Shown piece after piece: positions 1 through 13,235 of a stretch of DNA of 64,000 nucleotides. Positions within the stretch are counted from its first letter, which is position 1. The number at the start of each line of letters is the position of its first letter. A model generated the notes under the pieces. The model had not been told where the DNA came from, did not search any database, and was given only the letters and a program-made list of their open reading frames with translations. The translations under genes were made by a program, and so were the position numbers. Source of the DNA: an uncultured bacterium (GTDB taxonomy: Bacteria; Oederibacteriota; JAAXVQ01; JAUVAV01); NCBI GenBank assembly GCA_963710755.1, contig CAVQBK010000003.1, positions 211,605-275,604 on the forward strand. Direction: 5' to 3'.

Positions 1-1121
1 TGGGGATTGACCACGCCTTCCACCCCGGTCTCGGGATTTTTGAATTCCTCCACCAGCAGGGTGGTCAGGCTGCCGTCATTGATCCAATCGCGCACTTGCT
101 CCACATTGGCCTGGGTGGGCAAGCTCAACAGCAGATCAGCCGACGTGGTGCCGCAGGGCAAGGTGGGCTTGACTCCGTCCCAGGGATACAGCTTGATGTC
201 GTTGAGCAAGGCATCCATGAAGCACGTGCCCTTGCTCACAAAAAATTGGCTGTCGCTGTCCGGCTTTTCATGGCCGGTCCAGAAGGTGATGGTCTCCAGC
301 GGCATGCCTTGGGGATCGAGAGCGATCTCCAGATGCTGCCCTCCGGCCAATTTAACTGCCAGCCAGGTCACGGCCTGCTGGCCCTGATGAATATGGTAAT
401 CCATCAGACGGGCATGCCTGGCCAGGGACACACGCTTGCGGGCTGAGGTCAAGTAGGCCTCGTTCATAACCCGGTCCTGGAAATCGCTGAGCTCATCGGC
501 CGCCGCGCTGAATAAATCCATAAGCACCATATCCAGGTCCGCTTCACTGGTGGGTTGCCAGTTAGGCACGCGGGCCATCATGGCGGCGATCAACTGATGA
601 CGAAAAGAGGCGTAGTCCTTGCTCAAATAATCTATGCGCGGCTCGCTCTGCGCCGGACCGGCTTTTTCCCAATCAGGCGCGCAGTCGGCGCTGAAACAGC
701 CGGGCCGGAACTTGAAATCCAGTTCGCTCAGCAAAGGATCGATTTTGTAGGTGTCCAGGTCATTGATCGCCAGGGTGTAGGTGGAATAATCACCCACCGG
801 CGCGACGGTGAGACTGATTTTTTGCTGGCTCACCTGGCCTTCGATTTTGGTCACATGGATCTGATCCTTCAGCCATCCGCCGATAATACGCTGGCCCCCG
901 CTGATGGAAAAAACCTTGCAGGTCTGCTCCGGGCTGGTTGTAAACTCATCGAGCAGCTTTTGCAGTTTATGCTTGTTGTAAAAGTACACGTCCAGCACCG
1001 CATGGTCCGGATCAGGCCCGGACGGCAACCTGACCAGCACGAGCTGCATGCCATTGTAAGCGCCCAGGGTCTTGACCCGGTTGTTGAGGGCTTCCTGATC
1101 AATAATGGCCATGGTTCCCAT
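1..1121 (-). CDS. Baseplate J-like protein (gp6/gpJ/Afp11 family); N-terminal ~373 codons, C-terminus lies beyond window start
   Basis: Minus-strand frame is open from ATG at 1121 (GGAG just upstream; alternative ATG at 1112) to position 1. The ORF track misses it because it is truncated. Translation contains the baseplate-J signature stretch NWQPTSEADLDMVLMDLFSAAADELSDFQDRVMNEAYLTSARKRVSLARHARLMDY. It follows the gp25 gene, as in P2 W-J and Afp9-Afp11. The plus-strand ORFs listed here (7..387, 96..446, 555..1145) are antisense artefacts. Confidence 0.75.
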   Translation of the reverse strand, partial: MGTMAIIDQEALNNRVKTLGAYNGMQLVLVRLPSGPDPDHAVLDVYFYNKHKLQKLLDEFTTSPEQTCKVFSISGGQRIIGGWLKDQIHVTKIEGQVSQQKISLTVAPVGDYSTYTLAINDLDTYKIDPLLSELDFKFRPGCFSADCAPDWEKAGPAQSEPRIDYLSKDYASFRHQLIAAMMARVPNWQPTSEADLDMVLMDLFSAAADELSDFQDRVMNEAYLTSARKRVSLARHARLMDYHIHQGQQAVTWLAVKLAGGQHLEIALDPQGMPLETITFWTGHEKPDSDSQFFVSKGTCFMDALLNDIKLYPWDGVKPTLPCGTTSADLLLSLPTQANVEQVRDWINDGSLTTLLVEEFKNPETGVEGVVNP

Positions 1122-1135
1122 GTCTCCTTAAATCT

Positions 1136-1170
1136 AGTATTGTAGGGCACGGTCTCGACCGTGCTCTACA
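1136..1170. repeat. Intergenic palindromic hairpin element (copy A): ATTGTAGGGCACGGTC-tcg-GACCGTGCTCTACAAC
   Basis: 15-bp inverted repeat with one mismatch, located between the baseplate-J and gp25 genes. It shares the ends ATTGTAGGG...CTACAAC with the element at 1592-1628. Confidence 0.5.
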
Positions 1171-1187
1171 ACCCCGTCTGGACTACC

Positions 1188-10599: not shown

Positions 10600-10727
10600 G
10601 ATCCTTTGCTGACCGGCAAGCCGGAATTAATGGTGCCTAAAATTGCCCTACGCCTGGCGGGCATAAAAAAGCGCATACCTTGGGTACAGGCATGCCTGTA
10701 CCCAACCTCGCCCACCCGTGGCTGCTA

Positions 10728-11252
10728 TCAGCCTGCCGCCGGCACGGCTGCGGATTCATCAGGTTCCTTGGTATCCTTGTCCCGCTCCCAGCCTTCCATC
10801 TCGATTTTCATATTTTCAATGGCCACCGCATTGGCGCTGGCATCGAGATCCGGCATGGCCGTGTACTCGCTTACCCAGCATCCGTGCAGAAAATAGCGGA
10901 AGGCCACTTGGCCTCTTTCATTCATCACTTCCAGGATCAGTTCCTTTTTATAATTAACCAGATCCATGCCCTGGTCCCCGGCATAAGGATGAACCATGTT
11001 GGCCCAGTTCTCAAACTCCCGGTCATGGGTCAAGCCCCGGTCCAGGGTCAGGCCTTCGTAGCTGGTGCGGCCCGGGGATTTGTGTTCCACGCTGTTCTCC
11101 CCGCCTTCGCGGTACTTGACCACTTCCGTGGTGCGCTTGAGCGCCCCGGCTTTCTGCACGCCCAGCACCGGCCGCTCGTCCATAATGATACGGAATTTAA
11201 AATTCTTGTACGGGTCATATCGATGCGCGTTCTTAACGAATCCGTTTGCCAT
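10728..11252 (-). CDS. Contractile tail tube protein (Afp1/Pvc1, T4 gp19 family)
   Basis: 174 aa. DPYKNFKFRII...EVVKYREGGEN...PGRTSYEGLTLDRG...FENW matches the conserved eCIS/phage tube pattern (FxFxV, EYREGG, LTL.RG). Confidence 0.8.
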   Translation of the reverse strand: MANGFVKNAHRYDPYKNFKFRIIMDERPVLGVQKAGALKRTTEVVKYREGGENSVEHKSPGRTSYEGLTLDRGLTHDREFENWANMVHPYAGDQGMDLVNYKKELILEVMNERGQVAFRYFLHGCWVSEYTAMPDLDASANAVAIENMKIEMEGWERDKDTKEPDESAAVPAAG

Positions 11253-11273
11253 GATCGCCTCTCCTTTGAAAAA

Positions 11274-13235
11274 TTAGAGTTCTCCCGCTATCTGCTGGAA
11301 TTTTAGCACTACAAATTCCGCCGGTTTGAGGGGCGCAAAGCCCACCTCGATGTTGACGATGCCTTTGTTGCGGTCATCCTGCGTGGTGGTCTCGCCATCG
11401 CACTTGACATAAAAAGCCTGGTCCGGCGTGCTGCCCTGAAAGGCGCCCTGTTTGAACAGACCCATCATGAAGGCATTGAGGTTGAGCCTGACCTTGGACC
11501 AGAGCGGTTCGTCATTGGGCTCGAACACCACCCACTTGGTGCCACGGAAGAGCGACTCTTCCAGGAAAAGCGCCAGGCGCCGGATGGGAATGTACTTCCA
11601 TTCCGAGGCCGCCTGATCGCTGCCGTCCAGGGTCCGGGCGCCCCAGGAGACCGTGCCGTAAATGGGGAAGATACGGAAGCAGTTGGACGCCAAAGGATTA
11701 AGCGTGCCGTTTTGCCCATCGGTCAGCTCCAGGTCCAAAGCACTGACGCCCTTCAACGTGGCTTCCGTACCGGCCGGGGCTTTCCACACCCCGCGGGTCG
11801 TGTCAATGCGGGAATACAATCCGGCCATGGTGCCGCTGGAGCCCACGGATTTCAGGCGGTATTCATCCAGCGGATCAGGCATTTGCAGGCGTGGGAAATA
11901 AACCGCTGAGTTTTTATCGCGCAGGGAAGCATTGGCATCGAGCCAATCCTCCATCTCATCCACGGCGTTCACGGATTTGGGAATATCGATGATTAGAAAG
12001 GCACGCCGCTTAATGCAATAAGCCAGGGCCTTGCTGTAAACCGCCTGCATGGCGGTCACCCCGCCGGCGCTGGAGTCATCGGCAATGATGGCCGCCCGGG
12101 GAAGGCACATGATGTTGAACAGGTCCGCCAGCTCCAGGGCATACATGCCGGTAAAGGGCTCCGAGCTGGAGCCGATAAGGTCGCCTGCTTCCGGCTCGTC
12201 GCCGTCGGCGCCCTTGTCATCCTTGACCATGGCCGCGCCCGAGGGCACGGTGCCGTCAAAGCCCACCGGGTATTGCTGCACATTGGACGTACCGCTGGTT
12301 AATTTCAAATCAGCGGCCACTGTATCCGAGCCGTTGGCCGTCACCACAATCTGCTCGATGGGCGAATAGCTGTCCGCCTTGCGGCCGGAGAGGATACGAA
12401 AAGCTGTATTGGTGCCGTCCGAATAGACCTCCACCGTGGCGTCCGCAAAAGCCGTGGGCGTCACCCCTTCCGAGTTTTTGGCGCTGTGCAGACCGGCGGA
12501 AATAGCCTTTTTTAATTTATTAAAAGTGGCTGTGCCGTCGTAGGTGACCGTCACTTCCAGGGCCGCTTCACTGCCGATCTGGACGTTCATTTTTTCCCCG
12601 CTGGTTACAGTGGGCACGCTGGTGTGGCTGCCGCTGATCAGACCCGTGGGCAGCGGCATGGTCGAGGCACTGGTGGCCACGGTAACGGTGATCAGCTTGG
12701 AATCATTGTTGATGATTTTTTCCGCATAACGGCTGTTGCTTTCCGTGACGCTCAGGTTGAGGAATTGTTCGCTGGAGAGCGGCTGGGCATCATCTTCGTC
12801 ACTGACATAGCGGGTCACCGTAAGATTAAAAAGGCTGGCCGGATCATCGGTGTTGTAATCAATATCCACCCGCAGGGTGTTGCCCCAGGCTCCGGGGCTG
12901 AGGGCCGACACGGTCAGCACCGTGCTGCTGCCGTCGGTAATCTCGATGTCCGCCGTGGCATAAGTGCCGGCTTTGGCCGTGCGCACCACATAGGCCTCGG
13001 TGCCGCCGTTTAAAAAGAACTGATTGATGGCATAGCTGGCCGGACTCTTGGCCGAGAGGCCGCCGAAGAGGCGGTTGAAATCGGACAAACTTTGAATGCG
13101 CACGGCTTTGTCCATGGGGCCTTCCTTGAAGAAATCCACGAAAGCGGCAATGGAAGTGGCCACCCCTGTGATGGTGTGCACTCCGCTGGGAATTTCCTCT
13201 ACATACACGCCGGGATAAGTGTACTGCTGAGGCAT
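11274..13235 (-). CDS. Contractile tail sheath protein
   Basis: 653 aa. N-terminal YPGVYVEEIPSG is the classic sheath motif. Strong RBS (GAAAGGAGG) upstream. First gene of the operon. Confidence 0.85.
   Translation of the reverse strand: MPQQYTYPGVYVEEIPSGVHTITGVATSIAAFVDFFKEGPMDKAVRIQSLSDFNRLFGGLSAKSPASYAINQFFLNGGTEAYVVRTAKAGTYATADIEITDGSSTVLTVSALSPGAWGNTLRVDIDYNTDDPASLFNLTVTRYVSDEDDAQPLSSEQFLNLSVTESNSRYAEKIINNDSKLITVTVATSASTMPLPTGLISGSHTSVPTVTSGEKMNVQIGSEAALEVTVTYDGTATFNKLKKAISAGLHSAKNSEGVTPTAFADATVEVYSDGTNTAFRILSGRKADSYSPIEQIVVTANGSDTVAADLKLTSGTSNVQQYPVGFDGTVPSGAAMVKDDKGADGDEPEAGDLIGSSSEPFTGMYALELADLFNIMCLPRAAIIADDSSAGGVTAMQAVYSKALAYCIKRRAFLIIDIPKSVNAVDEMEDWLDANASLRDKNSAVYFPRLQMPDPLDEYRLKSVGSSGTMAGLYSRIDTTRGVWKAPAGTEATLKGVSALDLELTDGQNGTLNPLASNCFRIFPIYGTVSWGARTLDGSDQAASEWKYIPIRRLALFLEESLFRGTKWVVFEPNDEPLWSKVRLNLNAFMMGLFKQGAFQGSTPDQAFYVKCDGETTTQDDRNKGIVNIEVGFAPLKPAEFVVLKFQQIAGEL

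Follow-up and report, generated by a model that had tools for sequence, protein, structure and literature searches.

The stretch of DNA analysed here (the window, 64,000 nucleotides from an uncultured bacterium, positions 211,605 to 275,604 of contig CAVQBK010000003.1) begins with a cluster of 14 co-directional open reading frames (ORFs) on the minus strand, at positions 1-13235. With high confidence we assign this cluster, known here from its genes alone, to the structural core of a lineage II contractile injection system (CIS) of the Afp/PVC superfamily. Neighbouring ORFs are separated by short gaps or share their stop and start codons, and the overlaps or close spacing at 7612-7615, 5447-5450 and 1999 fit a single operon. 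The genes are collected in Table 1, together with a divergent gene on the other side of the sheath gene; all 14 lie where an earlier note, made from the letters of the window, had placed them. Products of six of the 14 genes have significant Pfam matches (sheath, tube, cap, AAA ATPase, gpV spike and gp25), and two further products match Pfam families below threshold, the 226-aa protein CIS_tube and the 111-aa protein DUF4280.

Table 1. Genes of the cluster, in order of transcription, and the divergent neighbour (positions in the window; numbers after family names are E values)
Product	Position	Strand	Length	Evidence and remarks
Contractile sheath (Afp2-4/Cis2 homologue)	11274-13235	-	653 aa	Pfam Phage_sheath_1C 5.7e-10
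Inner tube (Afp1/Cis1)	10728-11252	-	174 aa	Pfam Phage_T4_gp19 8.5e-37
Cys4 (CxxC...CxxC) protein, T4 gp51/gp26-like predicted fold	9868-10599	-	243 aa	conserved gene
Pro/Ala/Glu-rich low-complexity protein, tape-measure slot	8941-9852	-	303 aa	conserved gene
Cap/tail terminator (Afp16/Pvc16/Cis16) with C-terminal Ig-like TIG	7612-8781	-	389 aa	Pvc16_N (DUF4255) 5.4e-21, TIG 1.5e-4
AAA+ ATPase (Afp15/Cis15-like)	5447-7615	-	722 aa	Pfam AAA 3.4e-27, residues 497-621
Small conserved protein, directly after ATPase	5130-5450	-	106 aa	relatives ~90-106 aa
Probable tube-family adaptor/initiator (Afp5/Afp7-like)	4303-4983	-	226 aa	CIS_tube 3.1e-4, below gathering score
gpX/LysM-like baseplate protein	3892-4182	-	89-96 aa	likely start 4161; PHROG 7145 7.2e-4 and position
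Baseplate hub, gp27/gpD/Mu gp44-like (predicted fold)	2566-3729	-	387 aa	N-terminal half of split Afp8/VgrG
Spike OB-fold, gpV/gp5-like	1999-2535	-	178 aa	C-terminal half of split Afp8; Phage_base_V 4.4e-14
PAAR-like spike tip (DUF4280-type)	1664-1999	-	111 aa	DUF4280 0.0037, below gathering score
gp25/GPW-like wedge (Afp9/Cis9)	1188-1574	-	128 aa	GPW_gp25 1.1e-13
Baseplate J/gp6-like wedge (Afp11/Cis11a)	1-1121	-		N-terminal 373 aa visible; runs off window start
eCIS_core (DUF4157) protein, divergent from sheath gene	13947-16442	+	831 aa	eCIS_core 9.6e-30, residues 70-147

Components of the cluster and their placement in lineage II

Membership in the Afp/PVC-like superfamily was judged by the "core backbone" of dbeCIS, which comprises eight component types. 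Seven are clearly present here, and the eighth, the Afp7-type element, is present with uncertainty: its LysM and tube-initiator parts, fused in Afp7, correspond to two separate ORFs in the window, both with weak matches. Beyond the backbone, we see the hallmarks of lineage II, namely a split afp8, two copies of afp11 (the second one expected just beyond the window), PAAR, no recognisable afp14 and additional conserved genes of the "unknown" kind. According to published surveys, the subtypes of lineage II have their own gene organisation, afp8 is split in IIa-IIc, afp11 is duplicated in IIa and IIc, and the afp14 tape measure is not recognised in the lineage (Chen et al. 2019, PMC6899500; Geller et al. 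2021, PMC8213781). Lineage II loci of dbeCIS and eCIStem share with the present one the eight core types, Afp7 tentatively included, the split Afp8, two Afp11 proteins and PAAR, as well as the lack of a recognisable Afp14, conserved subtype-specific unknown genes and DUF4157 cargo. Nothing defining differs from them; in the window the DUF4157 gene lies divergently upstream of the sheath gene, and the 3' end, where cargo genes are usual, falls outside it. The presence of PAAR would argue against subtype IIb, but the PAAR match is sub-threshold and the argument falls short of a strict exclusion.

Genes of phage heads and of type VI secretion systems (T6SS) are missing from this picture. No Pfam match to capsid, portal, terminase, TssK/L/M or ClpV, or to other head, packaging or lysis families, was found in a scan of the cluster and of window ORFs of at least 200 aa outside it (four scanned ORFs had no Pfam match of any kind). 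Likewise, the called flanks of five related loci (L002-L006) contain no phage head, packaging, lysis or T6SS membrane-complex genes, and neither do the annotated downstream regions of relatives. What flanks the cluster in relatives are regulators and metabolic genes; elsewhere in the window we find cyo, bat, Fic and type IX secretion system (T9SS)-type genes. Taken together, the core component types, the lineage II hallmarks, a cap protein without phage match, the DUF4157 neighbour and the absence of head and T6SS genes therefore point to a lineage II CIS. The earlier note had likewise read the cluster as a CIS of the Afp/PVC ("eCIS", extracellular CIS) superfamily rather than a prophage tail or T6SS, and had seen no capsid, portal, terminase, TssM/L/K or ClpV gene; its ATPase and DUF4255 calls both pass the thresholds of the hidden Markov models (HMMs).

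As a proxy for lineage, in place of a phylogenetic tree, we used similarity of the sheath to solved sheaths. The best sequence matches in the PDB are 8bky (3.3e-75), 8bl4 (1.6e-72) and 9ezm (5.7e-72), against 2.8e-46 for Pvc2 and ~1e-37 to 1e-40 for the other lineage I sheaths, those of Afp, AlgoCIS and the thylakoid-anchored CIS (tCIS). The PDB gives only generic names for 8bky/9gtp and 8bl4/9gts. We take 8bky and 8bl4 to be Streptomyces CIS sheaths, and the neighbouring code 9gtr, titled S. coelicolor CIS, is consistent with such origin. The length of 9ezm, 574 aa, is exactly that of the product of the sheath gene of Halogeometricum borinquense, which we take to be its source. The tube protein matches the tubes of tCIS (All3324) and AlgoCIS in the PDB. 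Its mean column identity among seven orthologues is 87%; no other protein of the cluster but the 226-aa one (79%) is conserved to a similar degree.

The middle of the operon is formed by cap, ATPase and small genes. We found 1376 homologues of the cap protein, many of which share its Pvc16_N and TIG architecture, whereas a tblastn search of 50,697 phage genomes returned no match to it; PDB sequences gave none either. The ATPase gene overlaps the stop of the cap gene at 7612-7615 and is translationally coupled to it. Its product has a single C-terminal AAA domain of the Cdc48/p97 type, placed behind an N-terminal region of ~480 aa, and its PDB matches are VCP-like ATPase, Cdc48 and p97 (~2e-31). 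The small protein that follows has no family match in Pfam, NCBIfam or PHROG, yet its gene occupies the same position in six relatives (L001-L006) and in most metagenome loci, and on a Streptomyces plasmid an 82-aa ORF takes that place.

The hub was identified through its homologues and by structure prediction. Neither Pfam, in a search with the protein itself, nor PDB sequences, in a search with the hub-family profile, yielded a match. Several of its 88 detectable homologues carry a precomputed PF05954 (Phage_GPD) assignment or the name "phage protein D". An AlphaFold2 (AF2) model built from 56 sequences reached a predicted local distance difference test score (pLDDT) of 86.8 and a predicted template modelling (TM) score of 0.87. 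Searched by Foldseek against the PDB, this model matches the central spike of Anabaena tCIS in its gp27-like N-terminal part (7b5h_AJ, 1.2e-21), and it finds similar folds in AlgoCIS (7aef_q), S. coelicolor CIS (9gtr_q), PVC (6j0m_A) and VgrG1 of T6SS; full-length Mu gp44 (1wru, 9ki1_G), the pyocin R2 hub and T4 gp27 match as well. The 387-aa protein is, on its predicted fold, a gpD/gp27 hub, which with the separate gpV gene forms a split VgrG. The name gpD given to it in the earlier note was right on both grounds, the PF05954 homologues and the fold.

Three other calls of that note are less secure. The 226-aa protein had been named a second gp19-fold tube protein. CIS_tube is reached at E<=0.01 by three of its seven orthologues, hhalign finds no similarity to the first tube protein, and a profile search finds no PDB match; because of this, together with the sub-threshold score of the protein itself, its assignment to the tube family is weak. 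For the presumed LysM gpX, PHROG 7145 is named "baseplate wedge subunit", phrog_46 ("baseplate hub") follows at 0.066, and the family HMM matches gp087 of Bacillus phage BCD7, also a "baseplate wedge subunit" (1.6e-4). Its motif NDRLDxxAxxxYxDxxxFWHIADAN...VP resembles LysM by eye, but neither Pfam LysM/Tail_X nor hhalign to P2 gpX gave a significant match, so that PHROG and gene position are what speaks for the call. The PAAR-like gene directly follows the spike gene; besides the sub-threshold match in the window there is a faint DUF4280 match in one orthologue (L005), and the Cys/His positions are kept in six of the seven orthologues.

The visible 373 aa of baseplate J have no Pfam match. 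Full-length orthologues have 802-813 aa, and that of the L001 locus, which is 808 aa long and belongs to a metagenome-assembled genome (MAG) locus 86% identical, matches Baseplate_J (4.3e-8), PHROG 219 (3.5e-15) and TIGR02243 (4.6e-41; 141 bits at a cutoff of 155.8). Relatives have a second J protein (J2), whose N-terminus proves by hhalign to be a homologue of residues 135-317 in the first one, J1 (probability 96.7%, E 4e-10). J2, of ~880-900 aa, is followed there by a ~800-aa protein with a TIGR02242/CIS12-like signal, starting KRVPLYERLPEIYRIKDE, then by a DUF6519 and beta-helix protein of ~1150-1250 aa, a ~320-aa protein with CarboxypepD_reg/transthyretin-like domains and at least one eCIS_core protein. 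Homology thus supports the presence of second J, gpI/Cis12-like and DUF6519 fibre genes beyond position 1 of the window; further baseplate and fibre genes on that side had been expected in the earlier note, and relatives indeed carry them.

Afp (Serratia entomophila) and PVC (Photorhabdus), both of subtype Ia, are machines of the same type and use the same families for sheath, tube, gp25, J, Pvc16_N cap and ATPase, and the predicted hub fold matches Pvc8 and Afp8. In Afp the tube gene precedes three sheath paralogues, VgrG is fused, PAAR follows gp25, and tape measure, ATPase and cap are found at the 3' end, as they are in PVC. Here, by contrast, a single sheath gene precedes the tube gene, cap and then ATPase lie mid-operon, PAAR comes ahead of gp25, VgrG is divided between two genes and no Afp14 homologue was recognised. 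That the layout departs from Afp1-16 had already been recognised in the earlier note. The CIS of Streptomyces coelicolor (subtype IId; PMC10066040, PMC12237407) shares the hub fold (9gtr_q), and no canonical tape measure has been identified in it either, but its Cis8 is fused (9gtr_q, 641 aa), and it reportedly has two tube paralogues, no conventional fibre and a cytoplasmic mode of action. The system of H. borinquense (clade IIa, a membrane-bound "archaeal T6SS", PMC11566945) has a split VgrG as well (a Pvc8-family gene plus gpV) and also encodes PAAR and gp25, two "putative baseplate assembly proteins" and a "phage tail protein", together with DUF4255, an AAA ATPase and toxins with DUF4157; its sheath is 33.9% identical by tblastn. 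Its layout is different: the baseplate sub-cluster leads, a DUF4157 region of 8.7 kb separates it from the sheath-tube sub-cluster, and DUF4255 (of only 197 aa) and the ATPase are encoded on the opposite strand. We considered this haloarchaeal IIa layout for the present locus and rejected it on the annotation of pHBOR03.

Several points weigh against the assignment to lineage II or at least restrain it. The visible stretch ends inside the first J gene, and the fibres, the gpI-like gene and the cargo at the 3' end are inferred from relatives. The LysM-like, second-tube and PAAR-like proteins were called from sub-threshold matches and position, and what the Cys4, Pro-rich and small proteins do is likewise inferred. 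Finally, the characterised example of clade IIa, from H. borinquense, has the different arrangement described above.

Gene order in relatives and in phage tails

The order of 15 genes, from sheath to second J, is identical in six independent full-length loci (L001-L006), the cap proteins of which are 47-86% identical to that of the window and the MAG labels of which include Nitrospirota, Anaerolineales and Bipolaricaulia. In a wider metagenome survey, 80 loci were fetched with the second J protein and their components were scored by family HMMs. Each of the 60 loci that had three or more components was colinear, as were all 38 of those reaching the cap gene, and 30 loci had all eleven components from cap to J2. 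The same order is found in two cultured carriers. On a plasmid of Streptomyces sp. NBC_00299 a DUF4157 gene is inserted after the small gene, and in pSA1 of Novosphingobium resinovorum 8.5 kb of DNA is inserted at that junction. This order is what a widespread clade keeps as its norm, and not a peculiarity of the locus. With the window, this clade of lineage II CIS, large and catalogued before, gains one more member and a clean and compact example. The bacterium that carries it is, by its Por_Secre_tail, BatA-D and Peptidase_C25 genes, probably one of the Fibrobacterota-Chlorobiota-Bacteroidota (FCB) group.

The junction between the small gene and the gene of the second tube-like protein looks like a recurrent insertion site of cargo. 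The inserts lie at 24693-28187 of the Streptomyces plasmid locus (L092; a DUF4157 gene of 1164 aa) and at ~27301-35829 of the pSA1 locus (L089).

The earlier note had described the order as P2-like, which holds within modules only. In the P2 record tail genes form three operons, with X far upstream, then V-W-J-I-H-G, then FI-FII-E/E'-T-U-D. The intra-module orders FI-FII-E-T and V-W-J-I agree with the window, but the overall order does not: the window has one block with the sheath module first, and its X- and D-like genes directly precede V. The true colinear counterparts are myophages Mu and BCD7. The order in Mu is sheath, tube, chaperone, tape measure, gp43, hub gp44, spike gp45, gp46, gp47, gp48 and fibre, that is, the same single block. 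The closest phage sheath is that of BCD7 (34% identity by tblastn; family HMM 1.5e-82), where sheath, two tube genes, gp090, tape measure, a small "baseplate wedge subunit", gp25, J and fibre are colinear with our locus; the family HMMs match its sheath, tubes, gp51-like, gpX-like, gp25 and J proteins. These phages differ from the window in their head, lysis and replication genes and in a long helical tape measure, and they have no Pvc16_N cap, AAA+ ATPase, small gene or DUF4157 cargo.

From colinearity with Mu and BCD7 we conclude that lineage II keeps an ancestral one-block order of myophage tails, into which cap, ATPase and small genes were inserted after the tape-measure slot. What the locus offers in this respect is lineage II together with that ancestral tail order of the Mu/BCD7 type. 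The P2-like intuition of the earlier note does agree with the literature as far as the baseplate is concerned. A published division of eCIS separates those with an Afp11/12 type of baseplate from those with a Tail_P2_I type, the latter with DUF6519 (eBAP5) fibres whose attachment resembles that of R-pyocin fibres (PMC12923769). Relatives of our locus carry the gene succession of that second clade, a gpI/TIGR02242-like gene and then a DUF6519 fibre gene.

Two conserved proteins between tube and cap

Our readings that go beyond the available literature are confined to the two conserved "unknowns" encoded between tube and cap. The first of them, the Cys4 protein, has four invariant cysteines (C75, C78, C182 and C185). 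Its AF2 model (pLDDT 83.7) has as top matches in BFVD a "Baseplate hub assembly protein, T4-like", BCD7 gp090 (the second-best), the gp51 catalyst of phage ZZ1 and gp26, with E values of 1e-7 to 1e-3 and TM scores of ~0.5. Weak PF12322 matches in relatives and a weak match to PHROG 634 agree with this fold signal. No similar structure was found among solved ones, including every solved baseplate of CIS and phages, and the family profile found nothing among PDB sequences. Absence from all solved particles agrees with an assembly factor that does not stay in them. We suggest that the Cys4 protein is probably a hub or tape-measure assembly factor rather than a part of the finished particle; as far as predicted fold goes, the locus thereby gives an annotation to one of the conserved "unknowns" of the lineage.

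In other systems this gene is organised differently. In BCD7 (L091) the Cys4 HMM matches gp090 (18662-19435, 1.7e-4), and a stronger match (2.8e-8) falls on an overlapping ORF without annotation at 19372-19602, just before the tape-measure gene. This pair suggests a chaperone of two ORFs or with a frameshift, like gpE/E' or gpG/GT. A DUF6760 protein of H. borinquense matches the Cys4 protein at its C-terminus. The family thus occurs fused in the window, as two overlapping ORFs in BCD7 and as two genes, the second being DUF6760, in H. borinquense, a situation reminiscent of the chaperones of phage tail assembly, which come as two products.

The second protein, rich in proline, has no match in Pfam, PHROG or NCBIfam, and its profile finds nothing among PDB sequences. 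Across seven loci the family measures 288-339 aa at 15-23% identity, with a conserved N-terminus (MxGYFxRLxxQxG) and C-terminus (LSIGxIxhxhE...RHY) and an unalignable middle. Its gene stands between the gp51-like and cap genes, where BCD7, Mu and P2 carry the tape measure; in H. borinquense we recognised no equivalent. Tentatively, we propose that this protein might be the length determinant of lineage II, with the Cys4 protein as its dedicated assembly chaperone, although we would put the chances of this somewhat below even. A tape measure is described as absent from Streptomyces and haloarchaeal CIS (PMC10066040; PMC12237407; PMC11566945), and Streptomyces particles are reported to be of uniform length (PMC10066040; PMC12237407). 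For the ruler missing from both of these systems, the Pro-rich protein is a concrete candidate.

Proposed working, rival explanations and neighbourhood

Roles of all components in the following model are taken from homology, with the structures of T4, Mu, PVC, Afp, AlgoCIS and tCIS as background. A gp27-like hub trimer, the gpV-like spike and the PAAR-like tip would form a central puncturing device that nucleates the baseplate, the wedges of which would consist of gp25, J1, J2 and the gpI/Cis12-like protein. On the hub, the gpX-like and CIS_tube-like proteins would start the tube. The gp19-type tube and the sheath would then polymerise around a ruler, perhaps the Pro-rich protein, until a hexamer of the Pvc16_N protein caps them. 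The gp51/gp26-like Cys4 protein would act as an assembly factor, and the AAA+ ATPase might assist assembly or loading of cargo. Upon a trigger, contraction of the sheath would drive out tube, spike and cargo, the last probably being proteins with a DUF4157 tag, among them the divergent 831-aa product.

The sequence is compatible both with a particle that is released and with one fired from inside the cell, and the word "extracellular" in the earlier note is an assumption. A lineage II CIS may instead act from the cytoplasm or from a membrane anchor, by contact-dependent firing similar to T6SS or in cell death linked to stress or development. All characterised lineage II systems work from inside: the haloarchaeal IIa system is membrane-bound and contact-dependent (PMC11566945), and the IId CIS of Streptomyces are cytoplasmic and mediate cell death (PMC10066040; PMC12237407). 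The sheath of the window is closest to the solved sheaths that we take to be those of exactly these systems, and no lysis cassette is seen beside the cluster in the window. Set against this, in relatives the gpI-like gene is followed by one for a beta-helix fibre with DUF6519 (eBAP5), a class published as the target-binding fibre of eCIS (PMC12923769), and in the visible cluster we noticed no gene for a multi-pass membrane anchor like Hbor_38620 or CisA. We hold action from inside to be a real possibility, with chances somewhat below even.

The other rivals concern the identity of the locus. A defective prophage tail or an R-type tailocin derived from a P2- or Mu-like phage, killing by membrane puncture without cargo, would account for the colinearity with the tail modules of Mu and BCD7, for a hub fold equal to that of Mu gp44 and the pyocin R2 hub, and for the 34% identity of the BCD7 sheath. 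It would leave unexplained why the operon contains a Pvc16_N cap, itself without phage match, and an AAA+ ATPase, and why eCIS_core/DUF4157 genes are adjacent here and stand at the 3' end in relatives. Moreover, no head, lysis, integrase or repressor genes were found near the cluster, among the scanned ORFs of the window or in the six relatives, the tape-measure slot holds a 300-aa Pro-rich protein instead of a tape measure of the phage type, and published criteria separate such loci from tailocins. A phage remnant is thus very improbable next to a lineage II CIS. A classical T6SS (subtypes i-iii) shares sheath, tube, gp25, VgrG-like and PAAR-like modules and an AAA+ ATPase with the cluster, but it can practically be dismissed, since no TssJ/K/L/M, TssA or ClpV-type double-AAA protein was found in the cluster and the scanned window ORFs, the sheath is a single long protein of phage type and not TssB/C, the J paralogues and the Pvc16_N cap are absent from T6SS, and the ATPase has one AAA domain of the Cdc48 type.

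Returning to the lineage II CIS, a candidate cargo is the 831-aa protein encoded divergently from the sheath. DUF4157 is a published marker of CIS cargo and toxins (PMC11566945; PMC8213781), and the protein is probably a cargo or effector. The protein also contains an Ala/Pro linker and, in its interior, two coiled-coil-like repeats. Residues 65-327 are shared with another protein (P0226), whose C-terminal end is the toxin domain Ntox5. The last 220 aa of the 831-aa protein are found again in two others, one with DUF4157 (P0219) and one without it (P0266), with the pattern FE...D(I/V)...E(L/F)KSW...QF(I/L)KD conserved. By this motif alone, the C-terminal domain looks like a PD-(D/E)xK nuclease, which would make the protein a putative nuclease cargo with a DUF4157 tag. 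No immunity gene adjoining the gene was found.

Regulation upstream of the sheath gene varies among relatives. Activators of the sigma-54 type, together with a conserved 77-aa gene, lie directly upstream of it in L002 (1114-2223) and L004 (2845-3885); BTAD/SARP-like activators are found in this place in L003 (3545-4480), L005 (3447-4748) and L006 (4343-5101), and a MarR gene in L001 (247-723). None of these regulator types is encoded upstream of the sheath in the window. Because relatives carry sigma-54 activators, we searched the 13236-13946 spacer for a sigma-54 promoter, with no match. The spacer does contain an ORF of 77 aa (13393-13626), which we considered as the small gene found upstream of the sheath in L002 and L004 and rejected, as the two are not homologous. 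A scan of 13100-17300 for consensus promoters and terminators gave nothing above shuffled sequences.

The remaining window contains other genes of note. Between the DUF4157 gene and oxidase genes, the ORF at 16546-16770 (MPIVRVEV...) is by eye similar to 4-oxalocrotonate tautomerase. A cytochrome oxidase operon (COX2 with COX_ARM, COX1, CtaA-like and UbiA/CyoE-like) occupies 17201-22844 of the plus strand, ~760 bases downstream of the DUF4157 gene. At 29029-34365 (minus strand) there is an ORF of 1778 aa with no Pfam match and a P-loop, GLPGSGKS, near residue 318, which may encode a large NTPase of the STAND (signal transduction ATPase with numerous domains) type. It is adjoined by a stretch of low GC content at 22-30 kb with two ORFs without family match (24773-26269 and 26735-27637). 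Three tandem Fic/DOC genes of 456, 385 and 364 aa, two with Fic_N and one with SoFic-like_C, lie at 39688-44147 on the minus strand, within a block of ~40% GC (36-46 kb) in a window that otherwise has 55-57%; the block is therefore probably a horizontally acquired island. Finally, in the region 47090-60834 there are genes for aerotolerance proteins of the BatA/BatD type (VWA and TPR domains), for a Peptidase_C25 protein of 1173 aa and for two proteins that carry Por_Secre_tail, the C-terminal sorting domain of T9SS.

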